Source: a virus
Length of the DNA stretch: 39,492 nucleotides
Reading direction: 5' to 3' (one strand)
IMG/VR virus record: IMGVR_UViG_3300030419_005136
Location: 1 to 39,492 of that record
This document shows, in pieces, positions 16,443 to 33,300 of this stretch. Positions within the stretch are counted from its first letter, which is position 1; each line of letters opens with the position of its first letter. The notes under the pieces were generated by a model. The model made no database searches. It worked only from the letters and a program-made list of their open reading frames with translations, and had not been told where the DNA came from. The translations under genes were made by a program, and so were the position numbers.

Positions 16443-16999
16443 TCGACGGCCTCTCTGAGTCGTTGGGCGCGATGCGCCTGCAAAATGTCGTGCAACACGG
16501 TCACCTTGGCCGCATCGCCCTGACGCAACGCCGCCTCGACTGCCGCGCTCATATCCCCCACGGTCACACGGGAAACGCACCAGCGGGCGAAATAGCGCAG
16601 GTTATCGGGGTGGTTCGCCACGTGGGGCGGGTAAGCCAGATCATTGATAAACCACGCCGCCCACTGCTCGGCGCGGTGATAAAGGGTGTCATCGGTGGGT
16701 GCCTGGGCAGGGTCTGCGCGTTCAAGCGTCGGGCAATGCACCGTGAGTGATTCGCCATCATCCTCGACGATCAACAGCCCCTGCGCTTGGTAAAACGCCA
16801 TAAACTCACGGGCGCTATCGTCGTCGGCCTGCATCAAATCGCCCCACGCCACATAGGTTTTTTGTACCGGCCCGGTAGCGGCGGCTAGGGTTTCCAGCAC
16901 CAGCAAATAGCGGGCATAGCCAATCAACCCATACTCAGCCGCCACGGTGGCCACGCCCTCGCTGTGCGCAAGCCCGGCGGGGTGAACAAACCCACTCAC
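16433..16999 (-). CDS. hypothetical early protein (possibly replisome-organiser N-terminal-like)
   Basis: GTGA overlap with the Cro-like gene. The segment VAAEYGLIGYARYLLVLETLA recalls DUF4373-type domains. This assignment is weak. Confidence 0.35.
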   Translation of the reverse strand: MSGFVHPAGLAHSEGVATVAAEYGLIGYARYLLVLETLAAATGPVQKTYVAWGDLMQADDDSAREFMAFYQAQGLLIVEDDGESLTVHCPTLERADPAQAPTDDTLYHRAEQWAAWFINDLAYPPHVANHPDNLRYFARWCVSRVTVGDMSAAVEAALRQGDAAKVTVLHDILQAHRAQRLREAVECY

Positions 17000-17280
17000 G
17001 CCGCCACCCCGTCGCGCTCAGCCAGCACCGCCGCCCAAGGGCCATAGATGCCGTTATAATCCACCGCGCCAGCGGTCAACCGCACGATGCGCCCAGCGGT
17101 GCGTAAACTCGGGGCACGATCAAAGCGATACCAGCTCATCACCGTACGGGGCTTCTCGCTGAGCAGCGCGCCCGCACAGTCCGGCCCGCCCACTTGATCA
17201 ATCCAATCATTCAGCAACACTTTAGCGCACCATTTAACACGAATTGTGTTAAGCCTAGCGCGAAGATTGCCCACGTACAA
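16996..17280 (-). CDS. Cro/YdaS-like HTH regulator, first gene of the leftward operon
   Basis: It is divergent from the CI-like gene. The HTH-like segment is GGPDCAGALLSEKPRTVMSWYRFDRAPSLRTAGRIVRLTAGAV. The start codon is uncertain (TTG 17280 or an internal GTG). Confidence 0.5.
   Translation of the reverse strand: MYVGNLRARLNTIRVKWCAKVLLNDWIDQVGGPDCAGALLSEKPRTVMSWYRFDRAPSLRTAGRIVRLTAGAVDYNGIYGPWAAVLAERDGVAA
17234..17252. promoter_or_regulatory. operator-like perfect palindrome TTAACAC-gaatt-GTGTTAA
   Basis: 7-bp perfect arms with a 5-bp spacer, at the 5' edge of the Cro-like ORF facing the CI gene. Confidence 0.6.
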
Positions 17281-17298: not shown

Positions 17299-17317
17299 CT
17301 TACACGCTTTGTGTATT
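17299..17317. promoter_or_regulatory. operator-like palindrome cTTACAC-gcttt-GTGTAtt in the cI/cro divergent region
   Basis: It has the same ACAC-N5-GTGT core, in the 131-bp intergenic region between the divergent regulators. Confidence 0.55.
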
Positions 17318-17411: not shown

Positions 17412-18065
17412 ATGTCACAGCAAAGCGACAGACAGGACAAAAAAGAGCTAATCGCACAGCGACTAGTGGAAGTGCGCACCCACTTAGGGTGGTCGATCCG
17501 CGACGCAGTCGAAGCGCTCGGCTACGTGCGCTCTCGTTATACCAACTGGGAGCTAGGCATTCGCATGCCCGGCTATCAAGAATTGGAAGACATCGGCAAC
17601 GTAACTGGCTGCAACCCCGGCTATTTTGTCGGCTGGACAAACCGCATGATCGACAGCAGCTACGTCGTGCTAGACCGCACCACGGTTAAAACCCGTGGCG
17701 GCTCGATCACCGTGCAAAACGCCACCGATGTAGCCGCCTACCGCGACGACTACCTAGCCGAAAAAGGGCTAAAGCCCAGCAGTATTATCACCGTCAAAGC
17801 CGAAGATGACGCCATGGAAGGGGTTATCAGCAAGGGCGATTTAGCGCTAATCGACATGAGCCGCAAGCCCGATGCCGTGCGCGACCTGTTCGCCATCCTC
17901 GTGGGTGATCGTATCTGGCTGCGCTGGATACGCCCGGAAATCAACGGCAGCTACACCATGAGCGCCGAAAACAGCCACCAATACCCGGATGAAACCCTCA
18001 CCACCGAGCAGCTACAACAGCTCAACATCATCGGACGCGTCGCCATCATCGAGCACGAACGCTAA
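17412..18065 (+). CDS. CI-like repressor: XRE HTH + S24 peptidase-like domain lacking the catalytic Ser and Lys
   Basis: The N-terminal HTH is LIAQRLVEVRTHLGWSIRDAVEALGYVRSRYTNWELG. The C-terminal LexA/CI-like fold has DDAM in place of GDSM/GNSM and WLRWI in place of VKRL/FKKL. Confidence 0.75.
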   Translation: MSQQSDRQDKKELIAQRLVEVRTHLGWSIRDAVEALGYVRSRYTNWELGIRMPGYQELEDIGNVTGCNPGYFVGWTNRMIDSSYVVLDRTTVKTRGGSITVQNATDVAAYRDDYLAEKGLKPSSIITVKAEDDAMEGVISKGDLALIDMSRKPDAVRDLFAILVGDRIWLRWIRPEINGSYTMSAENSHQYPDETLTTEQLQQLNIIGRVAIIEHER

Positions 18066-18098: not shown

Positions 18099-18126
18099 AA
18101 CGGCACCTACAAAGTGCCGTTTTTTG
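18099..18126 (+). terminator. intrinsic terminator after the CI-like gene
   Basis: AACGGCAC-ctacaaa-GTGCCGTT followed by a T-run. Confidence 0.75.
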
Positions 18127-18135
18127 GCTTGCCGA

Positions 18136-18174
18136 ATAACACAATTAGTGTCACTCTTACACAGACTGTGTAAT
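18136..18174. promoter_or_regulatory. two adjacent operator-like palindromes (aTAACAC-aatta-GTGTCac; cTTACAC-agact-GTGTAAt) ahead of the rightward operon
   Basis: They have the same ACAC-N5-GTGT core as the sites at 17234 and 17299. They lie between the cI terminator and the gene at 18191 and overlap the -10-like TGTAAT. Confidence 0.55.
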
Positions 18175-18190: not shown

Positions 18191-18448
18191 ATGACCACGC
18201 AAGCGCTAGCCACCGTTGCCGCATCGCCCCCCATCGCCTGCACGCCACAAGCGCTGCACCAAGCACTGCGCGAAAGCGTGGCTATCGCCTGCGGCCTCGA
18301 AAAAATGGCCCAATGCGCGCTAGATGAAGGCGAGTACCCAGCGGAAGAACTCGACAACCTTTTTGCTCTCATTAACCGCCACCGCCGCGATTTAGAAGAG
18401 ATCAAGGCCGCGCTGGCCGAACTCGCCACGGGTGGCCGCCATGAATAA
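18191..18448 (+). CDS. hypothetical early protein
   Basis: ATG with an AGAGGG SD. 85 aa, acidic, no recognised motif. Confidence 0.5.
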   Translation: MTTQALATVAASPPIACTPQALHQALRESVAIACGLEKMAQCALDEGEYPAEELDNLFALINRHRRDLEEIKAALAELATGGRHE

Positions 18449-18842
18449 CGCCCTCACATGGCGCGACAACGACGCCCTCGCCCAGCCCGGCCAAGCCCTC
18501 AGCGACCAAGAGCTAGCCCACCTGCTCGCCCTCGCCAACGGCAACGCCCCTAGCGCCATTGCCGCCATGAACGGCACCAGCCGCGCCCAACAGCAGCAAC
18601 TAGAAAGCAGCCTGCGGGCCAAGCTGGGCGCGTTCAGCAAAGCGCACCTCATTACCCGCGCGTTCGTGCTGGGCGTGCTGCTACCTCGCTGCCTCACCGT
18701 GCTACTGATCGTCGCCACACTCGGTAATGGCGCCCAACAAGATGCCATCGCCCAGCGCCTACCCCGCCGCCCCACGCAAACCGCCAGCGCCCGCCTAATG
18801 CGTACTCAGCGGGGCAGTAGCGCAGGGGGTCGCCGCACATGA
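18441..18842 (+). CDS. LuxR/GerE-type HTH protein with hydrophobic C-terminal segment
   Basis: LSDQELAHLLALANGNAPSAIAAMNGTSRAQQQQLESSLRAKLGAFSKAHLITRAFVLGVL resembles the LuxR C-terminal HTH. The start could instead be GTG 18432. Confidence 0.45.
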   Translation: MNNALTWRDNDALAQPGQALSDQELAHLLALANGNAPSAIAAMNGTSRAQQQQLESSLRAKLGAFSKAHLITRAFVLGVLLPRCLTVLLIVATLGNGAQQDAIAQRLPRRPTQTASARLMRTQRGSSAGGRRT

Positions 18843-19684: not shown

Positions 19685-20854
19685 ATGTGGTTTACCAACA
19701 TCACCGTTTACCAGCTCCACAACGCCCAAGCGATCGACAGCATAACGCTGCATGAAACGCTGCAAGCAGAAGCCGCCAAGCCGTTAGGCAATACCGACGC
19801 CAAGCGCCTTGGCTGGACACCCCCAGCAGGTCGCGCCAGCAACGCCTATTTACATGAAAGCCAAGGCCACCGCCTGCTCAGCATGCTCAAACAGCAACGC
19901 ATGCTGCCGCCCAAGGTCGTCAAAGCAGCGGTCGAGGAAAAGGTCGCGGAAGTCGAAGCCAACGAAGGCCGCAAGGTCACGCGCAAAGAAAAAACCGCCT
20001 TCAAAGAACAGATCACCGAGGAGCTGCTACCCCGCGCCTTTATCGATAGCGTCAAAATCGACGCATGGTGGGACGTAGAAAAAAACCGCATCATCATCAA
20101 CAGCGGCAGCCGCGCCCGCTGCGAAGAGCTGTTAGACCTGCTACGCGAAACCCTCGGCAGCCTCAAAGCCACCCCGCTCAGCACCCAAACGCTACCCATC
20201 CGCGCCATGACCACCTGGGTAGGCGACGCCAGTCACCGCCCCGCCAACCTCCAGCTCGGCGACAAAGCCACGCTCAAAGCCAAAGGCGACGACGGTAAAA
20301 TAGCCGCCACGCAAGTGGATCTCGACAGCGACGAAATACAGCAGCTACTCGAAAGCGGGCGCCAAGCCACCAACCTCGCCATTACCATCGACGAACGCGT
20401 GAGCGGCGTACTCACCGACAGCCTGCAGCTAAAAGGGCTGCGCTTTAGCGACAAGCTCATAGAGCAAGCCGACATGACCGAAACAAAGAGCGACGACGGC
20501 GACGACGCCATCGCCCGGCTGGAAAGCGACTTTTTCCTCATGGCCCACGCCCTAAGCGACACGCTGGATAGCCTCGTTCACATGCTGGGCGGTGAAACCG
20601 TACGTGAAGTAGCAGCAGAAAAAGGCACACGCCCCGACGACAGCCACCCCGGCGAACAGATCGGCGGCTTTGAAAAAGAAGAGCCGTTATTGAAAGAGGC
20701 CATCGAGCTAGTGAAGCGCTCCCCGCGTGACAAGCTCACGGTTTCCAAGCTCCAGCGTCATTTCAAAATTGGTTACAACCGCGCCGCATGGATGCAAGCC
20801 TACCTGATCCAAAACGGCCACATCCCCGACCACTACGCGCAGCTAACCCCATGA
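19685..20854 (+). CDS. rdgC: RdgC-like recombination-associated protein fused to an FtsK-gamma-like winged helix
   Basis: The N-terminus MWFTNITVYQL matches E. coli RdgC MLWFKNLMVYRL, with colinear RdgC blocks for about 300 aa. The C-terminus DKLTVSKLQRHFKIGYNRAAWMQAYLIQNGHI matches FtsK gamma [28 protein letters not shown]. Confidence 0.75.
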   Translation: MWFTNITVYQLHNAQAIDSITLHETLQAEAAKPLGNTDAKRLGWTPPAGRASNAYLHESQGHRLLSMLKQQRMLPPKVVKAAVEEKVAEVEANEGRKVTRKEKTAFKEQITEELLPRAFIDSVKIDAWWDVEKNRIIINSGSRARCEELLDLLRETLGSLKATPLSTQTLPIRAMTTWVGDASHRPANLQLGDKATLKAKGDDGKIAATQVDLDSDEIQQLLESGRQATNLAITIDERVSGVLTDSLQLKGLRFSDKLIEQADMTETKSDDGDDAIARLESDFFLMAHALSDTLDSLVHMLGGETVREVAAEKGTRPDDSHPGEQIGGFEKEEPLLKEAIELVKRSPRDKLTVSKLQRHFKIGYNRAAWMQAYLIQNGHIPDHYAQLTP

Positions 20855-21991: not shown

Positions 21992-22257
21992 CCACAAAAC
22001 TGCATAGCGCTACTCTGCCCGAAGTCGCTGCAAAATCAGCGACCGGGTTTAGCAGCTCAACGGACATTGGCGCACAAGCGCCCCCAATCATCGTGTAGGC
22101 GCTATTTTTGTGCCCGCGTGATGCACTATGGCGGGCCGTGCGTGGGGCGCTTCGGCGCGCCGGGTTTCCAATGTCCCCGGTCTGCTAACCCGCGTACGGT
22201 TCGCCTCCATCGTTTAGCAGCGACAGGCGAACTCCAACAGACTTGGAGAATCGCACC

Positions 22258-23040
22258 ATGAGCACCCCCACTATCACAGTGTCTGGCGTCACCCTTCCCT
22301 ATATTGAATATCAGCAGCAACCCGTCGTCACTTTCGCCATGATCGACGGCGTACATTCAAAATCCAAGGCGACGGCACGACGCTCATTTCAGCGAAACAA
22401 AAAGCATTTTATTGAGGGTGAAGACTTCTATGCCCTTGATTCTGAAAGGTTGGGACAAATTGTCACTACCTATCCCGACCTGTTTCCGGCGGCAACCACA
22501 CGCCTAACCCTCTTCACCGAAACCGGCTACCTTATGCTGGTCAAATCGTTTACCGACGACCTCGCATGGCAAGTACAGCGCCAGCTCGTCAAAAGCTATT
22601 TCCGCGTCAAAGGCGCGATGCAGCCCACCACCGCCGAGCCCATCCCCACGCCCATCGACCACCGCCAGCGCGAACAGCTCACCAACGCGGCTAACGCCGT
22701 GTTTCGCAATTTCCACGGCATGCGCCAAAGCGCCACCGGCTGGTTTTACAACGGCGTGCGCACCGACTACTGCCTAAAACGCATCGAAGATTTAAGCCAG
22801 GACGACTTCCCGGCGGTGATGGAACGCCTCCAAGCCCTACGCCCCAAGGTGCGCCAATACGAAGATTTTAGGTATGACTTTCAACAGTCGTTTTTAAAAG
22901 AGGTGGTAGGCGAAGGCCAGCCCTACACGGCATGGATCAGCAAGCTAGCCGGTGGCCAACACCACATCGGCCAACGCCCCAACTGGAAAGCGATAGCCAA
23001 GCAAGTGCTAATCCACAACGGCTTACTCACCAAACAGTAA
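22258..23040 (+). CDS. ORF6N/KilA-N domain protein (antirepressor-type DNA-binding protein)
   Basis: ATG 22258 with a GGAGA SD. The N-terminus QPVVTFAMIDGVHSKSKATARRSFQRNKKHFIEGEDFY...LFTETGYLMLVKSFTDDLAWQVQRQLVKSYF fits ORF6N. Confidence 0.6.
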   Translation: MSTPTITVSGVTLPYIEYQQQPVVTFAMIDGVHSKSKATARRSFQRNKKHFIEGEDFYALDSERLGQIVTTYPDLFPAATTRLTLFTETGYLMLVKSFTDDLAWQVQRQLVKSYFRVKGAMQPTTAEPIPTPIDHRQREQLTNAANAVFRNFHGMRQSATGWFYNGVRTDYCLKRIEDLSQDDFPAVMERLQALRPKVRQYEDFRYDFQQSFLKEVVGEGQPYTAWISKLAGGQHHIGQRPNWKAIAKQVLIHNGLLTKQ

Positions 23041-23244: not shown

Positions 23245-23895
23245 ATGGGATACAAAATTGCCTTCGTGAGCCAAAAGGGCGGCGTCAGCAAAAGCACCCT
23301 AAGTCGAGCACTCGGCACCACCTATGCGGCGGCGGGCTGGAACGTCAAAATCGCCGACCTCGATATTAACCAGTCCACCTCGTTTACATGGCTGCAGCGC
23401 CGCCTCAAAAGCGGCGTAACGCCCGAGGTGGCGGTGGAAACCTTCGGCACGGTGGCCAGCGCCCTCAAAGTAGCTGACACCTACGACCTAATGATTTTCG
23501 ACGGTGCGCCCCACGCCACCAAAGCCACCGCCGAAGTGGCCCGGCTTGCGGATCTCGTCGTTCTGCCTACCGCGTTAAGCGTTGACGACCTTGAACCCAC
23601 CGTAAGGCTGGCCAACACACTCACCGGCCAAGAGGGCGTACCCATTGAGCGCATCGCCATCGCGCTGAGCAAAGTAGGCAAGAGCAAAACGCAGCTGCAG
23701 GATGCCCGCGCCTACCTCGCCCATACGCCCTATTTTGTACTCGATGGCCAAGTACCCGAGCGCGACGCGTTTGTATTAGCCCAAGATAAAGGGCTGTCGA
23801 TTGTTGAAACCCCCTTCAAAGGCCCGAAGGCCCAAGCGGATGAACTGATACAAAACATCATCAACCGCTTTGAATCACTCGTTCAGTCAGCGTGA
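23245..23895 (+). CDS. parA: ParA/ParF-type partition ATPase (small, type Ib)
   Basis: Deviant Walker A KGGVSKST in MGYKIAFVSQKGGVSKSTLSRALG. 216 aa, with no N-terminal HTH domain. Confidence 0.8.
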   Translation: MGYKIAFVSQKGGVSKSTLSRALGTTYAAAGWNVKIADLDINQSTSFTWLQRRLKSGVTPEVAVETFGTVASALKVADTYDLMIFDGAPHATKATAEVARLADLVVLPTALSVDDLEPTVRLANTLTGQEGVPIERIAIALSKVGKSKTQLQDARAYLAHTPYFVLDGQVPERDAFVLAQDKGLSIVETPFKGPKAQADELIQNIINRFESLVQSA

Positions 23896-25364: not shown

Positions 25365-25877
25365 CTATCGCAACGATTTAACCAGTGTCAGCTCATCGCT
25401 GGGCAAAGGCTTAAAACCGTATCGCTTATAAAAATCCACCGCATCAGGCAACGCGTTTATCATCAGGGCCACAGACCCCACTAAACGCGACTGATCGGCT
25501 GCAGTTTGCCAAGCAGCCAGTAGCAAACGGCAACCGACCCCCTTGCCTTTTAGTCGGCTATCGACGGCTAAACGCCCTAACGTGGTCACGGGAACGCTTC
25601 GGGGCATGTTCTTTTTTAACTTGCCCATCATTTTTTCGCGGTCCACTGCACCAGATGCAAGCGCAAAATATCCTAGCACTAGCTTTGTGCCTGGGGCGCA
25701 CACTACATAGACCGTAGTAGCACCACTTTGATGGTTGCCTAACGCTTCACTGGCTAAAAACTTATTTAGCGTGAACACGCCACAATCGAAGTGGCTTAGG
25801 TCGTGCTGAGGCGTTAAGAGCTCTGGGGCTGCGACGACGCCCAAATCGGTGTTTTGTTGAGAAGTTTCTGAAAGCAT
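25365..25877 (-). CDS. GNAT-family acetyltransferase toxin (TacT/AtaT/KacT-like)
   Basis: GGAGGA SD. The N-terminus has PELLTPQHDLSHFDCGVFTLNKFL and the acetyl-CoA loop RLAVDSRLKGKGVGCRLL. It pairs with an upstream RHH/DUF1778-like gene. Confidence 0.75.
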   Translation of the reverse strand: MLSETSQQNTDLGVVAAPELLTPQHDLSHFDCGVFTLNKFLASEALGNHQSGATTVYVVCAPGTKLVLGYFALASGAVDREKMMGKLKKNMPRSVPVTTLGRLAVDSRLKGKGVGCRLLLAAWQTAADQSRLVGSVALMINALPDAVDFYKRYGFKPLPSDELTLVKSLR

Positions 25878-26122
25878 GGGTCCTCCGATGCTGGCTGTTT
25901 AATAGCCTCTTCGAAGAACGCGTAGTCGGTTTCATTCAGCATGTAGAATCGTCGGTTCAGCAGTACCTCTTCGGCTTTTCGACATGCGGCTTCCACCACG
26001 AAACTGGTTCGATCTCCCCCCAGCTCCGCTACGGCTCTATCGATCAAGGCGCGTTTTTTAGGGTCAACACGCATATTGAGTGCCAGTGGCTTAGCCACTG
26101 CCTCAGCAGCTGTGCTTTTCAT
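25814..26122 (-). CDS. DUF1778/RHH antitoxin (TacA-like)
   Basis: LNMRVDPKKRALIDRAVAELGGDRTSFVVEAACRKAEEVLLNRRFYMLNETDYAFFEEAI. It overlaps the toxin start by 64 nt. Confidence 0.7.
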   Translation of the reverse strand: MKSTAAEAVAKPLALNMRVDPKKRALIDRAVAELGGDRTSFVVEAACRKAEEVLLNRRFYMLNETDYAFFEEAIKQPASEDPCFQKLLNKTPIWASSQPQSS

Positions 26123-26456
26123 GATGTATGTCCTATCGCTGTTTAAGGGTGTTTCTCTCCTTAGCCTTGCTCAGCAGCTTGTTGCTGCCTGCAAGGCGCG
26201 TTTAGTTTATGGGTTCTGTTGTGCCTTTGGTTGGGTTAGCCATGTGTCATCTCCTTGGTTTTTTAGTAATGGTTTTGCTTTCTTTGCCTGTGTTGGTTGC
26301 CACGATATATAGCAAAATACATGCGGCAACAATTTCAGTATAACATATTATGTAGCTCAAAACTACACAATGTAGCACAGAGCGTTACGCTGCTTTAGGT
26401 ACTCCCTAAGCGCCCACTGGTGGCCCGCCTGATCAATCAGGCGTTTTAGTCAAACC

Positions 26457-26502
26457 CCCACCCAAAACGCCCACCTGCTAAACTGCCCACCCAAAACGCC
26501 CA
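26457..26502 (+). repeat. two 17-bp direct repeats CCCACCCAAAACGCCCA upstream of the serine recombinase
   Basis: Copies at 26457-26473 and 26486-26502, with a 29-bp period. They end 21 bp before the recombinase ATG. Confidence 0.7.
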
Positions 26503-26523
26503 AAACACCGCCAGGGGGAACGC

Positions 26524-27171
26524 ATGTACGTCAGGGGATACCTACGCGCCAGCACGGCAGAGCAGAACGCCCAGCGGGCACGCAGCACGCTAGAACACTT
26601 CGCCGCTGAACATCGCCGTGAGGTAGTGAGCTGGTATATCGAGAATGTGAGCGGCGCTAGCAGCCAGCGCCCGGAACTCAGGAGGCTTCTGGAAGACGCC
26701 AAGCAAGGTGATGTGCTACTGATCGAATCGGTAGACCGCCTTTCCCGCCTGGGGGCGGCAGAGTGGCGGCACCTGCGGGGGCAGATTGAGGCGCTAGGGT
26801 TACGGGTGGTGTCGCTGGACCTTCCCACTAGCTACGCAGCCATGGCCACGCCCAGCCAGGGCGAGGATTTTACCGCCCGCATGCTCGATGCGCTGAATAC
26901 CATGATGCTAGACGTACTCGCAGCGGTAGCCCGCAAAGACTACGACGACCGGCGAACGCGCCAGCGCCAGGGGATAGAGCAAGCAAAGAAGGAAGGCAAG
27001 TACCAGGGAAAGCGGCCCAACAAGGCACTACACCAGCGAATTGAAGCGCTATTGAACGCCCGCGATGGTGAAGGCAAACCGTTCACCACGGCGCGCATTT
27101 GCGAGCTAGCCGGGTGCGGTGAAACCACTGTGAAAAAGGTAAAGCGGGCTATGCGCGAAAAGGCACACTAA
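26524..27171 (+). CDS. serine recombinase (resolvase/invertase family)
   Basis: The catalytic N-terminus is MYVRGYLRASTAEQN. The block VLLIESVDRLSRL and a C-terminal HTH (ARICELAGCGETTVKKV) are present. Confidence 0.8.
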   Translation: MYVRGYLRASTAEQNAQRARSTLEHFAAEHRREVVSWYIENVSGASSQRPELRRLLEDAKQGDVLLIESVDRLSRLGAAEWRHLRGQIEALGLRVVSLDLPTSYAAMATPSQGEDFTARMLDALNTMMLDVLAAVARKDYDDRRTRQRQGIEQAKKEGKYQGKRPNKALHQRIEALLNARDGEGKPFTTARICELAGCGETTVKKVKRAMREKAH

Positions 27172-27440
27172 GCGCCACGTGAACGCCGCTTTCTTACCCG
27201 GCCCTGCAACCGCTGCCACCATTCGCCGGGTAGCCAGATCGACACCCACCGCAATAGCAATTCAGCCCGGCGGGCGTCCGGGTAATCGTCGGGGTAGTGG
27301 GTAAAGTCGCTGGCCAGCGCCAGCAGTTGGGCCTTGCCTTGCTGTTCTACGGCATCGTGGGCGGGGTCAAAGGCAGCATCTAGCAGCACAGCTAACCACG
27401 TGGCCACTTCATCGGCGTTCATTTGCTTGGGGCGGGGCAT
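27168..27440 (-). CDS. hypothetical protein
   Basis: ATG 27440 with an AGGTG SD. 90 aa. Convergent with the recombinase and overlapping it at the stop codons (CTAA). Confidence 0.35.
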   Translation of the reverse strand: MPRPKQMNADEVATWLAVLLDAAFDPAHDAVEQQGKAQLLALASDFTHYPDDYPDARRAELLLRWVSIWLPGEWWQRLQGRVRKRRSRGA

Positions 27441-28389: not shown

Positions 28390-29355
28390 CTAGTAACGTC
28401 GCTGCCGGTCTAGCCACTCTTCATACGGCGGGTACTTGATGCGCACCAGCTTGTTCACCTCGGCATGGCTGGCACCGGGGTTATCGCGCACCACCTGGGC
28501 AAAGTAGGCGTTTGCCTCTTGGTTATAGCGGCGCTGCAGTTCTTTTTCATCGTTGGCGTCGGGTAGATCCTTCTTACCCCGGCGCTGCTTCTGCATCGCT
28601 CTGGGGCCGCTGCCTGCCATCGCTAGGCGGCTACGGGCCTGGGCGGCGTCGTACGCCTTGGGGTGCTGTTCGCGGTGCTTACGGCGGGCTTTCTTAATGC
28701 GGTTGCTGCACCAGTCGCGGAACTCCTTAAACTTCTGGTAGCCCACACGCCCCAGCGCCAGCAGAAAATCCGGGTTGAGTAGCTTCACAGCAGGCCGGGC
28801 GCGCTTAGTACCGTCGGCTTTCACCTCATGCTGCAAATGCACCGTAAACGCGCCAGCGAGCTTTAAGCGCCGGAAGGCGCGCCAAAAACGTTGGCTAGGC
28901 TCGGGGGCTTCCGGGGTGCTGCCGGGTGCCAGCAGGCCCGCCACGCGGGCAATTTCCGCACAGCTACGGTGTTTAAAACCACCATCCGCTAGTGGGGTGC
29001 CCACGCGCAAACTGGCGAACTCGGTAAACTGAATGATGGCAGAAAGCACCAGCGACTCAGCAGCGCGGGCCTCAGATCGGTTACAGCGGGGGTTGCCATC
29101 GGCGTTGGCCTTGCCGTTCAGGTTGGCCAGCGTGGGCAATAGGCCGGGGCTGGTGTAGTAGGCTTTGGCACCGTCTACCAGCGCTTGCAGTGTGGCGGGT
29201 AGCCGCCCCTTTTTAACGGGCTGGCAATAGCGCTCAAATTCCCCTTTCGCGGGGTTATGCCCGCACCGGTTACCGGTGCCCCACCACTTGCCGGGGTGTT
29301 CGTATGGCACGCGCCCCCACGTGAGGGGCTGCGCGTTCTCTGCTGCAGCATCCAT
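28390..29355 (-). CDS. repA: plasmid replication initiator, IncFII RepA-like
   Basis: 321 aa from ATG 29355. The central block ...SEARAAESLVLSAIIQFTEFASLRVGTPLADGGFKHRSCAEIARVAGL...RFWRAFRRLKLAGAFTV... and the basic C-terminus are colinear with IncFII RepA as I recall it. Confidence 0.5.
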   Translation of the reverse strand: MDAAAENAQPLTWGRVPYEHPGKWWGTGNRCGHNPAKGEFERYCQPVKKGRLPATLQALVDGAKAYYTSPGLLPTLANLNGKANADGNPRCNRSEARAAESLVLSAIIQFTEFASLRVGTPLADGGFKHRSCAEIARVAGLLAPGSTPEAPEPSQRFWRAFRRLKLAGAFTVHLQHEVKADGTKRARPAVKLLNPDFLLALGRVGYQKFKEFRDWCSNRIKKARRKHREQHPKAYDAAQARSRLAMAGSGPRAMQKQRRGKKDLPDANDEKELQRRYNQEANAYFAQVVRDNPGASHAEVNKLVRIKYPPYEEWLDRQRRY

Positions 29356-29411: not shown

Positions 29412-29491
29412 AGTCGGTTTTGTGCCCCAGTCGCTAGTGCTGCTGCCCAAAACATCCGAGAAGCCCCAGCGCCAACTGGGGCTTTTCTTTT
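29412..29491 (+). ncRNA. candidate antisense (countertranscript) RNA against the repA leader
   Basis: Plus-strand TTGCCC (29377-82), a 17-nt spacer and TAAACT (29400-05). The terminator AAGCCCCAG-cgccaa-CTGGGGCTT+TTCTTTT (29461-29491) works only on the plus strand. The RNA would lie 57-136 nt upstream of the repA ATG. Confidence 0.35.
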
Positions 29492-29597: not shown

Positions 29598-29616
29598 TTG
29601 ACACGAACTGTGTTAA
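29598..29616. promoter_or_regulatory. operator-like palindrome TTGACAC-gaact-GTGTTAA upstream of the repA leader
   Basis: It has the same ACAC-N5-GTGT core and TTAACAC-type arms as the immunity-region sites. Confidence 0.5.
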
Positions 29617-29658: not shown

Positions 29659-29871
29659 CTAGTGAGGGCCGTGCTTGCCCGCTCGCTGCAGCTCATGCCC
29701 CAGCGCATCGCGCACCATCGCTAGAATCATGTGATTGCCCGCGTGCGGCTCTTCGCCAGTCACCTGCATAAATTCCATCATCACATCAATGTTTTGCAGC
29801 GTATCGCGCTGGTTAATGCCCACCAGTACGTTAGTGTTATATCGCTGCGTCGTTCCCTGCTGCTCGCTCAT
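29659..29871 (-). CDS. 70-aa orphan protein under a LexA-box promoter (candidate SOS-induced antirepressor)
   Basis: ATG 29871 with a GGGGAGG SD. The product begins MSEQQGTTQRYNTNVLVGINQRDTLQNIDVMMEFMQVTGEEPH...; no recognised family. Confidence 0.6.
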   Translation of the reverse strand: MSEQQGTTQRYNTNVLVGINQRDTLQNIDVMMEFMQVTGEEPHAGNHMILAMVRDALGHELQRAGKHGPH

Positions 29872-29910: not shown

Positions 29911-29926
29911 CTGTTTATACATACAG
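29911..29926. promoter_or_regulatory. LexA (SOS) box CTGT-ttatacat-ACAG
   Basis: A perfect CTGT-N8-ACAG with an AT-rich spacer. On the minus strand it lies immediately downstream of the -10-like hexamers TAGTAT/TATGAT. Confidence 0.65.
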
Positions 29927-30095
29927 CATCATACTACACCGCATGACGCTAATGGAAAATTGCTAAGCGGTTTTAAGCGCTTACGCGGATGTTAGCGGCC
30001 CTGAACCCGCGCTCGAAATAACGCTCAACACCGCCAACACCTTTATCAAAACACGAGCGACGTGCCGCGCAAGCATCCGAGAGACTTCTGTGCAG

Positions 30096-30592: not shown

Positions 30593-32424
30593 TGGCTATC
30601 CTCTAAAGAAACCAGACGTTGAAATTCAGGTTCAGAGACAGCTTTCGGTATAGCTTTTACTAACCGAACTACTCCGTTCAAATAAAACGCATTTTCTGAA
30701 TTTCTACCCAGTAGCGCTTGTGTGATATTTGGTAGTGACGCTGGCACACTGCTAACCGTAGTGCCATTAACACCGAACATCGCTAATCCGTTTTTGAATG
30801 TAACCCCGGCCCTTATTTTTCCCGCCAATACAGGTGTGATTGGGGGGTTATAGGACACGCCGTTTGCAACAAATCGATTAAGTATTGCCCCGTCGCTTGT
30901 AGAGTAGTATTGCGCGATGCGGTTATTATCGCTATCACCTAAAAAGTACAATGTTTGCGTAGTTTCTGAGGCATCTATTTCACACTCGATGATAAAAGTG
31001 CCCTCACTTGTATTAAACTCGGCCCCTAACTGCCGCGATATATTGTCAGCAGCGCGGGTAACAGGCGCACTCTCAGTGACGATTACGGGGCCGGGGACGG
31101 TGCCTTCGACGAGTTGGGCGTGGGCCAACAGAACGCTACCCGTCAGTGTTCCACTCCCAGGACTGGTTAGATTATCCCGAGACGCTGGGCGTAGCGTCCA
31201 ACGCGCCCTATTGTTCCCCAATCCGTTGTTTTCAACAGAGCATGAAATCCTGAAAACCCCACTAGAAATTTCATCCACTTTAGCTACAGCGTTTCCGTTT
31301 GTTAAAAACTCGCCAGTTGTTAGATCAACCCATACGCCTTCCTCTCTAACCGTGCCACCAGTATATGCAATCGATAGCCTCACCACATTGCTCGTTCCCG
31401 CAGAAACAATAGCCGATGCGGTTCTAGTTACAGTGTCGTTGGGGACTGCAATACTTCGGCCCAGGTATTCGTCAGCCGAATTGCTATTATCAGCCACTTC
31501 ATAAAACACGCTACCGTTAAACGGGGACTGTACCGAAGATGCACTGACAGAAACGGAGCTGTTCCACGCCGCATTACTAAAATCCGTAGACCACAACAAC
31601 TCATTCGTCACCGCCCCCGAAATCTGCGCCTGATACTGCTGCGTTTCAGGGTTCCACTCTCGCGCAATAACATTAGGCGGCACATACACGTATTTCAGCG
31701 AGCCATCGGCTGTATGCTGATATGCGAGCGTTCCACCTAGTCGCTCGAAGCCGTTCCAGAGTTCTTCGCTCTCTACTGCATCTTGCACCCCTCCATAAAG
31801 CGGCGTGCCTAGGCCATAGGCGGCTAGATTAAAATCTGAGTGCAGCGTTTGCCCGTTATCGCCTAGCCGTTGTAGCGAGCGATTCAAGCGCACGGCGGCG
31901 GAGTGCTTGGCGTCTACGCCTGTTTTTGTGTAGTACGTCGTGATGAGCGTGGCTGCGCCTGCATCGTTGCGGTAGACGCTGACACGCTCGGCTTCCGGCG
32001 CTTCGATCACGCGGAAGTAGTTCGTGTCTACCGTACCCGCTAGGCCCGCTGAAACGCTGGCGTAAGTAGCGGTGGCCTGGGCCACGGCATCGGCCATATT
32101 GCTCGCCGTAGTCGCACTACCGGCGGCGTCTACGGCACTGGCGTCGGCATCGCTGACCAGCCCATTGAGGGTTTGCAGGTCGAGATTGATACTGTCGCGG
32201 TCGTTGCTGGCTTGCTGCGCTGCGGCGCTGGCGGTTTGCGCTGCGCTATCAGCTTCGCCCGCTTTCTGCACAGCGTGACCGGTCATGGCTAGGCCCTGCT
32301 GCAGGGCGGGTACAAATCGCTCGATGTAGCCGGTGCCGTCTAGGCCGGTCGTGGGGTCGGCATCATCGGTAATAGTGATGCCGCTACCGCCGTACTCCGT
32401 GGGAAACGTGACGCTATTAGCCAT
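30589..32424 (-). CDS. tail fibre / receptor-binding protein
   Basis: The N-terminus ITITDDADPTTGLDGTGYIERFVPALQ followed by Ala/Ser/Gln-rich coiled sequence is typical of phage tail-fibre N-termini. The C-terminal half has much lower G+C. Confidence 0.65.
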   Translation of the reverse strand: MANSVTFPTEYGGSGITITDDADPTTGLDGTGYIERFVPALQQGLAMTGHAVQKAGEADSAAQTASAAAQQASNDRDSINLDLQTLNGLVSDADASAVDAAGSATTASNMADAVAQATATYASVSAGLAGTVDTNYFRVIEAPEAERVSVYRNDAGAATLITTYYTKTGVDAKHSAAVRLNRSLQRLGDNGQTLHSDFNLAAYGLGTPLYGGVQDAVESEELWNGFERLGGTLAYQHTADGSLKYVYVPPNVIAREWNPETQQYQAQISGAVTNELLWSTDFSNAAWNSSVSVSASSVQSPFNGSVFYEVADNSNSADEYLGRSIAVPNDTVTRTASAIVSAGTSNVVRLSIAYTGGTVREEGVWVDLTTGEFLTNGNAVAKVDEISSGVFRISCSVENNGLGNNRARWTLRPASRDNLTSPGSGTLTGSVLLAHAQLVEGTVPGPVIVTESAPVTRAADNISRQLGAEFNTSEGTFIIECEIDASETTQTLYFLGDSDNNRIAQYYSTSDGAILNRFVANGVSYNPPITPVLAGKIRAGVTFKNGLAMFGVNGTTVSSVPASLPNITQALLGRNSENAFYLNGVVRLVKAIPKAVSEPEFQRLVSLEDSQ

Positions 32425-33300
32425 TTATAGGATCTCCAGCAAAGCCATCGGGTTTTCGTAGTTAGCAAAATAGGGGTGGGTGATGGGGTTTAACGTCTCT
32501 TGCCTGCACAGCATCGCCCGCGCAAAGTTGGCGGGGCTGGGGGTCACTGAGTAGACGTAGAGTAGTTCGCCGACGATGTCCTGGGTGCGCTGTAGGCGGT
32601 GCAAACGTAGGAATGCTTCGTCTTCATTGAGAAGTTTCAGGTCAAACGAGACGGTGCGCTTGGGCGTCACCTCATCGGCGTACTCAGTGCGTGAGGGGTC
32701 GCGGGCCTCAGTCATCGTGGTGCCGCTGTTGTAGCCGTGCTGCACGCCGTAGCTGATGTTGTACTCCGGCTGCCAGGCATCGGTGAGTATGACGCGCCCC
32801 AGCTCGATGGCCCCGTCGGGGTTGCCGGGGTCGCTTAGCTCGACGTCTACCGCCGTGCCGATCACCCGCTCGTCAAAAAACAGGATCATCAGCGGCGTGT
32901 ACGTGGCGCGGTCTTCCTCGCTGAGCCTGCGGTTCCAAAAATTGTCGTCGCCCCATATCACGTCGTTGAGCGTGTAGACGATGGGCCAGACGTTTTGCAC
33001 GCCCGTATCGGCGATCTCGTCGGTACGCTCGGCATCGCGGTACGCTCGGGCGCGAACCGTGGCCGTAGGGCTGAGGTTGTGGGCGGCGATGGCCACAGCG
33101 TGCAGCCGCCGCCGCCCGGGAAGGGTGAGCGTAAAACGCGTATCGGCGGGATCTAGCGATGCAGTTTTGGCAACGACCGATAGCCGCCGGTCTTGTACGT
33201 GGGCCAGCGGCAGCGTAGGCACCCAACTGCCCCCGCTGAGCGTGGCAGCGGGCACGTAGTTCGGCCAGCACAGTACGATTTTGTTGGGATCAAGTGCCAT
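32425..33300 (-). CDS. distal tail / baseplate-like protein
   Basis: ATG 33300. A 291-aa ORF between the post-tape-measure gene and the fibre. The assignment is positional. Confidence 0.5.
   Translation of the reverse strand: MALDPNKIVLCWPNYVPAATLSGGSWVPTLPLAHVQDRRLSVVAKTASLDPADTRFTLTLPGRRRLHAVAIAAHNLSPTATVRARAYRDAERTDEIADTGVQNVWPIVYTLNDVIWGDDNFWNRRLSEEDRATYTPLMILFFDERVIGTAVDVELSDPGNPDGAIELGRVILTDAWQPEYNISYGVQHGYNSGTTMTEARDPSRTEYADEVTPKRTVSFDLKLLNEDEAFLRLHRLQRTQDIVGELLYVYSVTPSPANFARAMLCRQETLNPITHPYFANYENPMALLEIL

Follow-up and report, generated by a model that had tools for sequence, protein, structure and literature searches.

A CI-type repressor with a predicted non-catalytic S24 fold, the clade it belongs to and a small gene behind a LexA box on a Halomonas phage-plasmid

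Repressors such as lambda CI, P22 C2 and VP882 cI combine an N-terminal helix-turn-helix (HTH) domain with a C-terminal S24 fold, are encoded between divergent operons with palindromic sites, and are cleaved with the help of activated RecA (RecA*) through a Ser/Lys dyad that acts on an Ala-Gly bond. In VP882 cI, these elements were assigned by mutagenesis to S130, K172 and A91-G92 (bioRxiv 10.1101/2019.12.16.877910). We analysed a gene located at 17412-18065 in viral DNA of 39,492 nucleotides (IMG/VR record IMGVR_UViG_3300030419_005136, positions 1 to 39,492; this whole stretch is called the window), which encodes the predicted lysogeny (immunity) repressor of a Halomonas phage-plasmid. The domain order and the genetic setting are those of the three repressors named above, whereas the catalytic dyad and the cleavage site are replaced by Ala134, Arg171 and Thr94-Arg95.

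A second group of known systems relies on non-cleavable repressors and on LexA-controlled antirepressors encoded outside the immunity region, as established for 186 Tum, N15 AntC and the Gifsy prophages; the Gifsy repressors (about 136 aa) are devoid of a C-terminal domain altogether (PMC3121763). With 186 Tum, N15 AntC and Gifsy GfoA/GfhA, the window shares a repressor predicted not to cleave itself and a small gene lying behind a LexA box outside the immunity region, so that the SOS signal would be sensed indirectly; unlike the Gifsy repressors, the window repressor has retained an S24 fold, although one that appears catalytically dead. The N15 and 186 repressors are not known to carry an S24 domain.

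Two other systems are close in some respects. The transcription factor-small open reading frame (TF-smORF) modules of linear plasmid-like phages also contain an open reading frame (ORF) of about 60-80 aa beside a replication gene, the product of which inactivates cI without proteolysis, but these modules depend on phage-encoded transcription factors, are independent of SOS and act on an autoproteolytic cI (PMC10432266), whereas host LexA and a non-proteolytic repressor are proposed here. Silpe et al. (2023) put aside 210 of their 271 cI proteins in the same study, having predicted that these are not autoproteolytic; N15-like repA-telN loci were present in most of the phages concerned (PMC10432266). 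Finally, the two positions altered in the window repressor are those of the laboratory mutants LexA K156R and S119A, of which K156R is by itself an uncleavable, SOS-deficient allele (PMC5760743). The substitutions described below occur in nature, are fixed throughout a large clade and come with a Gly to Asp change in the GDSM motif and with an RWIRPE signature.

The repressor gene has the following features, which, like the fold, the clade pattern, the phage-plasmid setting, the shared elements and the conserved box with its small gene, were established at the level of sequences and profiles.

17412-18065, plus strand: immunity repressor gene, 217 aa, with an XRE HTH and an S24-fold domain predicted to be catalytically dead (ORF, Pfam, PHROG_4, AlphaFold2)
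17457-17627, plus strand: HTH DNA-binding domain, residues 16-72 (Pfam HTH_19, HTH_31 and HTH_3; PDB profile matches)
17691-17696, plus strand: Thr94-Arg95, at the position of the LexA Ala84-Gly85 scissile bond (hhalign)
17709-18041, plus strand: S24-like C-terminal domain, residues 100-210, predicted non-catalytic (Pfam PF00717, Foldseek, hhalign)
17811-17813, plus strand: Ala134 (codon GCC), at the nucleophile position, LexA Ser119/lambda CI Ser149 (hmmalign and hhalign)
17922-17924, plus strand: Arg171 (codon CGC), at the general-base position, LexA Lys156/lambda CI Lys192 (hmmalign and hhalign; invariant in the clade)

Residues 15-72 matched the Cro/C1-type HTH models HTH_3, HTH_19 and HTH_31 of Pfam, with profile matches in the PDB to XRE, ImmR, SinR and P22 C2 domains, and residues 100-210 matched Peptidase_S24 (PF00717) with 38.1 bits (E 1.4e-9; gathering cut-off 23.3 bits). 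Among the PHROGs, the protein matched PHROG_4, 'transcriptional repressor' (E 1.8e-22), and also 'CI-like repressor'. An AlphaFold2 model computed with 19 homologues as input reached a mean predicted local distance difference test (pLDDT) score of 88.6, and a Foldseek search against the PDB matched its C-terminal domain to Thermotoga maritima LexA, the C-terminal domain of Mycobacterium tuberculosis LexA, UmuD' and the C-terminal domain of lambda CI, with a probability of 1.00 and a target-normalised template modelling (TM) score of 0.67-0.76. Since Pfam, the PHROGs and the model with its structural matches agree, the product can be described as a CI-type two-domain repressor with an S24 fold, as had been claimed in an earlier note on this DNA. 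The genetic context is also that of a CI-type repressor: the XRE/Cro-C1 HTH is N-terminal, the gene lies between divergent operons with repeated candidate operators, and the gene order is shared by relatives.

Sequence and profile searches against the PDB were too weak to map individual residues, because those performed with the full-length family were dominated by the HTH and those performed with the C-terminal domain alone only reached T. maritima LexA (E 0.64). The mapping was thus based on a library profile search followed by hmmalign and hhalign. A profile of the C-terminal domain searched against 1.8 billion representative proteins gave 6,236 matches at E ≤ 0.001, the best 150 of which were aligned by hmmalign together with the earlier homologues and E. 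coli LexA. In this alignment, the canonical GDSM...V-K-R columns coincided with DDAM...L-R-W in the window repressor. When relatives carrying the same Arg (the Arg clade, see below) were compared by hhalign with a second alignment, made from LexA, lambda CI, UmuD and 68 canonical relatives, the two families were matched over 110 aligned columns with a probability of 99.8% (E 8.5e-30). The LexA, lambda CI and UmuD reference sequences were checked only for Ser, Lys and Ala-Gly/Cys-Gly at the published positions; the residue mapping is independent of these three, since the canonical motifs appear in the same columns in 70 sequences of the library.

An active S24 autoprotease is characterised by a Ser in a G-(D/N/M)-S-M motif, a Lys general base and an Ala-Gly or Cys-Gly bond about 35-42 residues before the Ser. 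In the window repressor the fold is present, but all three of these features are missing: Ala134 occupies the nucleophile position, Arg171 that of the base, and Thr94-Arg95 that of the scissile bond, and neither an Ala-Gly nor a Cys-Gly dipeptide was found anywhere in the 217 aa. The earlier note had called for a profile alignment and had already read the Ser to Ala change in DDAM and the missing dipeptide, both of which are corroborated here. It had also proposed that the Lys was replaced by Arg or Trp; the loss of the Lys and its replacement by Arg were recovered, but not the Trp. No other Ser, Thr, Cys or Lys column was at least 85% conserved in the Arg clade (n=95), which speaks against a dyad located elsewhere in the domain. 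With Ala, Arg and Thr-Arg at the three decisive positions, RecA-stimulated self-cleavage would be excluded, as the note had reasoned, and the C-terminal domain is, as far as the sequence changes allow us to infer, a pseudo-protease. The invariant Ala109-Tyr110 was considered as a possible remnant of the cleavage site and rejected, as the A-F/Y...W/Y-L motif to which it belongs is also found in canonical Lys-containing proteins that have their Ala-Gly further upstream.

The changes are not restricted to one protein. In the aligned set, the Lys column contained an Arg in 95 sequences and a Lys in 70, hereafter the Arg and Lys clades. The nucleophile column was a Ser in all 70 Lys-clade sequences; in the Arg clade it was a Ser in 43 (45%), an Ala in 24, a Thr in seven, a Val in four and a Leu in three, with Tyr, Asp, Asn, Gly, Cys, His or gaps in the remainder. 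The first position of GDSM was an Asp in 79 of the 95 Arg-clade sequences and a Gly in 69 of the 70 Lys-clade sequences, and the Arg was embedded in a W-x-R-W-I-R-P-E signature (the RWIRPE motif). An Ala-Gly or Cys-Gly located 39-44 residues upstream of the Ser column was found in 58 of 69 Lys-clade sequences, and near this spacing in only about 10 of 87 Arg-clade sequences. Because the change from Lys to Arg goes together with that from Gly to Asp in GDSM and with the RWIRPE signature, these losses are not likely to have arisen by chance; a relaxed nucleophile position, an invariant base position that is not Lys and a lost cleavage site together form the signature of a pseudo-enzyme. The loss of the catalytic residues is a trait of a large clade, in which the Arg is invariant and the Ser position drifts, and not of a single protein.

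All of the repressors inspected on related phage-plasmids were of the Arg type, with the motifs GDSM...RWIRPE in Edwardsiella, DDSM...RWIRQE in P. aeruginosa, DDSM...RWIRPE in Delftia, DNSL...RWIRPE and DNSM...RWVKPE in V. alginolyticus, and DDAM...RYVRRD in Vibrio sp. HDW18. The V. parahaemolyticus repressor (DDSM) was classed as Arg-type from a frameshifted translation and a two-piece tblastn match. In this plasmid, pVPGX2 (NZ_CP020037.1; L006), the repressor gene (31957-32594) is frameshifted past the DDSM and its translation contains stops, which reflects either a sequencing error or a decayed repressor. The CI-like repressors of the Mu-like phages JBD24, SuMu and MuM16-1 were discarded as members of this clade, as their tblastn matches have a canonical G(D/S)SM...KR, and so was the repressor of Pseudomonas phage Fyn8, which keeps both Ser and Lys (GDSN...KR).

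The element that carries the repressor encodes a large terminase, a portal, a protease-capsid fusion, tail proteins, an integrase, an invertase and a partition protein:

23245-23895, plus strand: ParA partition ATPase (NCBIfam ParA_partition, PHROG_164)

A repressor 92.6% identical to that of the window is present on NZ_CP080628.1 (L003), a circular 45.8-kb plasmid of Halomonas qaidamensis XH36 with the same gene order. This plasmid, together with the ParA, integrase and virion genes, identifies the element as a phage-plasmid. Other homologues of the repressor are carried by non-mobilizable plasmids of 35-57 kb from Vibrio, Pseudomonas, Aeromonas, Edwardsiella and Delftia, and by metagenomic contigs with an equal architecture.

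If the repressor is not cleaved, it has to be inactivated by another route. The earlier note had put forward two candidates, the gene with an SOS box at 29659-29871 and an ORF6N protein. The first of these is now strongly favoured and the second appears weaker, as discussed below. The locus of the small gene comprises:

28390-29355, minus strand: gene of about 320 aa that follows the small gene, a candidate replication initiator judged from its position alone (PHROG_20951, function not known)
29659-29871, minus strand: small gene of 70 aa, probably gated by LexA, proposed antirepressor (ORF; homologues; found on elements with Arg-clade repressors)
29911-29926, no strand assigned: perfect LexA (SOS) box CTGTTTATACATACAG, of the gammaproteobacterial type, the only CTGT-N8-ACAG in the 39.5-kb window
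29928-29933, minus strand: −10-like hexamer TATGAT, one base from the LexA box (read from the sequence; the string GTAGTATGATGCTGTAT is shared with the Halomonas-type relatives L001 and L002)

The box is located 39 nt upstream of the ATG of the small gene (29871). We examined ten elements, namely, the window, the H. qaidamensis plasmid, the Logan contig L002 (partial, repressor not recovered), and the elements of Edwardsiella, P. aeruginosa, V. parahaemolyticus, Delftia, two V. alginolyticus strains and Vibrio sp. HDW18. A syntenic gene of 67-83 aa, with a perfect CTGT-N8-ACAG 0-110 nt upstream, was found in all ten. In eight of the nine elements seen in full or nearly so, this box was the sole CTGT-N8-ACAG; the P. 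aeruginosa plasmid has three boxes. The intergenic DNA around the box was otherwise dissimilar between genera. The nine elements in which the repressor could be read all had an Arg-type repressor and the small gene with its LexA box. The small proteins have in common a motif, (E/D)-(W/F)-L ... acidic stretch ... (H/C)-(P/A)-G-(M/L), and among the 72,556 plasmids of PLSDB, homologues of the Edwardsiella small protein were detectable on seven plasmids, all of which belong to the 26 that carry a repressor homologue.

The other component of the proposed switch is a set of palindromes flanking the repressor gene. A scan for TTACAC-N5-GTGTAA with at most two mismatches detected five sites in the window, where 0.71 were expected, and none of 100 shuffled sequences reached five. 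All five are found at matching relative positions on the H. qaidamensis plasmid. These sites, for which no strand is assigned, are:

17235-17251: operator-like palindrome TAACAC-N5-GTGTTA in the divergent promoter region (pattern scan; L003)
17300-17316: operator-like palindrome TTACAC-N5-GTGTAT, within the divergent promoter region and ahead of the repressor gene (pattern scan; L003)
18137-18153: operator-like palindrome upstream of the rightward early operon (pattern scan; L003)
18157-18173: perfect operator-like palindrome TTACACAGACTGTGTAA; the first rightward gene starts 17 nt downstream, at 18191 (pattern scan; L003)
29599-29615: fifth operator-like palindrome TGACAC-N5-GTGTTA (TGACACGAACTGTGTTA), between the small gene and the gene of about 320 aa (pattern scan)

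The sequence of the fifth palindrome was identical in the Halomonas-type elements L001 (10247-10263) and L002 (610-626) and on the H. qaidamensis plasmid (24137-24153). The T(T/A)ACAC-N5-GTGT(A/T)A palindromes are most likely the operators of the repressor. Because the fifth one separates the small gene from the gene of about 320 aa, the latter, a candidate replication gene, may also be under the control of the repressor.

Taken together, these observations suggest a switch in which a non-cleavable repressor is inactivated by a small antirepressor gated by LexA, an explanation to which we give, as a whole, a probability of about 0.58. The HTH of the repressor would bind the flanking palindromes and keep the leftward and rightward operons silent, the S24 fold being retained presumably for dimerisation or oligomerisation and not for catalysis. 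Host LexA, bound to the box at 29911-29926 beside the −10-like hexamer, would hold the 70-aa gene off until DNA damage, when RecA* would trigger the self-cleavage of LexA and the 70-aa protein would be made. The protein would then bind the repressor and inactivate it without proteolysis, thus opening the lytic programme. This last function is the weakest step, and is proposed from the parallel with the smORF antirepressors of plasmid-like phages and with 186 Tum, N15 AntC and Gifsy GfoA/GfhA.

Several points weigh against this scheme. The window contains a repressor predicted not to cleave itself and a gene with a LexA box, as do the LexA-antirepressor systems, but the 70-aa protein, which does have homologues, matched no family of Pfam, PHROG or NCBIfam, and these scans revealed no homology to known antirepressors. 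A scan for the sigma-70 consensus called no promoter at the repressor locus or at that of the small gene. Between the window and the H. qaidamensis plasmid, the small proteins are 70% identical and the repressors 92.6% identical; the small protein has diverged far more, whereas simple co-evolution of two tightly paired proteins would predict otherwise. All ten elements share one syntenic backbone, and the co-occurrence of the two genes is thus confounded by shared ancestry. No Lys-type repressor that could serve as a negative control was found on the same backbone; two PLSDB records considered as possible controls of this kind both had an Arg-clade repressor and the small gene with its LexA box. 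Since the Ser is kept in the nucleophile column of 45% of the Arg clade, some relatives may have residual chemistry. Finally, a possible replication gene follows directly after the small gene, which could control replication instead.

This last point leads to the alternative that survives best, in which the small protein, although gated by LexA, is not an antirepressor but acts as a switch towards lytic-mode replication or as a modulator of the host SOS response. In that case, the repressor would disappear by another route, such as a host ATP-dependent protease or simple dilution, or the element would not be SOS-inducible at all. A host ATP-dependent protease removes the repressor of phage Mu. 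The position of the small gene fits this alternative, as the gene of about 320 aa immediately downstream takes the place of repA in the related element L008 and the fifth palindrome lies between the two; so do its divergence and the absence of matches to antirepressor families. Homologues of the gene of about 320 aa occupy the equivalent place in Halomonas, Edwardsiella and Delftia elements, and the gene at this position in L008 is annotated as RepA; the identification of the gene of about 320 aa itself as RepA was not confirmed, as no homology to the annotated L008 protein was detectable. However, a hairpin (29458-29487) separates it from the small gene, and in plasmid-like phages the locus adjacent to repA encodes small antirepressors (PMC10432266). 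Moreover, a repressor that does not cleave itself still needs a route of inactivation, and the small gene bears the only SOS signal on the element. We thus regard this alternative as rather unlikely.

In a variant of the proposed switch, the dead S24 cleft would be re-used as a docking site for the 70-aa protein or for RecA*, an invariant Asp132-Arg171 pair having replaced the Ser-Lys dyad. In LexA and CI, the substrate cleft receives the protein's own cleavage loop. If this were true, a pseudo-protease would act as the receptor of the SOS signal across a phage-plasmid family of Gamma- and Betaproteobacteria, but we view this variant as speculative and rather doubtful.

The second candidate of the earlier note was also considered:

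22243-23040, plus strand: ORF6N-domain protein annotated 'anti-repressor', weaker alternative inducer (Pfam ORF6N E 3.9e-14; PHROG_4608 E 3.1e-40)

The possibility that this protein, and not the product of the SOS-box gene, inactivates the repressor is suggested by its matches to PHROG 'anti-repressor' families (E 3e-40 to 1e-9) and to Pfam ORF6N, and by the presence of homologues in the close Halomonas-type relatives L001, L002 and L015. However, the family name is a homology annotation only, no LexA box was found near the gene with one mismatch allowed, and the gene is part of the rightward operon, which is preceded by the operator-like sites at 18137-18173, so that its product would be made only after derepression. 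In addition, the annotations of the Edwardsiella, Pseudomonas, Vibrio and Delftia elements, which have the same type of repressor, include no ORF6N gene, whereas the box was present in 10 of 10 elements and accompanied an Arg-type repressor in 9 of 9. A role of the ORF6N protein as the inducer appears improbable. An inactivating protease of the ImmA/IrrE type (COG2856/Peptidase_M78) was not found either, as none of the 26 ORFs scanned between 14.5 and 29.9 kb had such a Pfam match.

Self-cleavage through another nucleophile or base, or at a non-canonical site, is very hard to credit. In its favour, the model shows an intact S24 fold with good confidence, and 43 of the 95 clade members keep the Ser and about 10 an Ala-Gly near the expected spacing. 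However, the window repressor itself has an Ala and an Arg in the two catalytic columns, the clade offers no alternative conserved Ser, Thr, Cys or Lys column, the residues A, T, V, L, Y, D, N, G, C and H all occur at its nucleophile position, and the K156R change alone makes LexA uncleavable in vivo (PMC5760743).

Pseudo-enzymes in general are common. A literature search for pseudo-protease or non-catalytic S24 repressors returned nothing specific; its coverage was incomplete and thus gives no proof of novelty. In the literature searched, there appears to be no description of a large natural clade of the S24 fold with an invariant Lys to Arg change and a drifting nucleophile, of its association with a widespread family of circular phage-plasmids, of its conserved partnership with an orphan small protein that would be gated by LexA, or of its routine misannotation as S24 peptidase or LexA-family regulator. 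The Prokaryotic Genome Annotation Pipeline (PGAP) labels Arg-clade repressors 'S24 family peptidase' or 'LexA family transcriptional regulator' (NZ_CP080628.1, NZ_CP097559.1, NZ_CP054061.1, NZ_AP025557.1 and others), which is a systematic over-annotation, the Ser/Lys dyad being absent.

This matters because an S24 domain alone is often used to predict induction. An Arg in the Lys column, a GDSM motif whose Gly has become Asp, and the RWIRPE signature provide a simple sequence rule to separate this large, predicted non-catalytic clade from autoproteolytic repressors. The present analysis also ties the clade to a conserved, uncharacterised family of small proteins probably gated by LexA. The phage-plasmids concerned reside in Vibrio, Aeromonas, Edwardsiella, Pseudomonas aeruginosa, Delftia and Halomonas, several of which are pathogens of humans or in aquaculture. 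If the small protein is an antirepressor, it would represent a new antirepressor family, and the pair would offer a natural system in which to ask why a protease fold outlives its chemistry.

Two other features flank the repressor gene:

16996-17280, minus strand: divergent first gene of the leftward operon, Cro-like candidate (ORF; weak match to PHROG_409 'transcriptional regulator', E 0.0012)
18101-18125, plus strand: hairpin followed by a T6 run, resembling an intrinsic terminator, just past the repressor stop (sequence; fold −15 kcal/mol, z −4.0)

In relatives, the position of the first of these is occupied by a gene of 68-80 aa, and the true start of the window gene is probably located downstream of the TTG. 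The second gene of the rightward operon (18432-18842, plus strand) matched the PHROG 'sigma factor' phrog_3282 (E 1.7e-8), and the gene at its position in the related element L016 is annotated as a LuxR C-terminal-related regulator; its product may be an early activator of late genes.

Further genes were noted in the window and its relatives. The accessory region between the partition and tail genes contains a DNA invertase/serine recombinase (26524-27171, plus strand; PHROG_125, E 6e-41), which may switch host range or phase, or else act as a resolvase of plasmid multimers. A GNAT acetyltransferase (25365-26122, minus strand; Pfam Acetyltransf_10/7/1), with a small overlapping ORF just upstream (25814-26122), resembles in its layout a GNAT-toxin/antitoxin addiction module, which would fit a plasmid-borne prophage. 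On the H. qaidamensis plasmid, the closest relative, a diversity-generating retroelement (25638-27319), composed of a reverse transcriptase and a four-helix-bundle protein of the Avd type, is located between the tail genes and the small gene. Finally, the gene at 19685-20854 (plus strand) encodes a recombination-associated RdgC fused, according to Pfam, to an FtsK-gamma (KOPS-binding) domain, and this fusion is kept in the Halomonas-type relatives.

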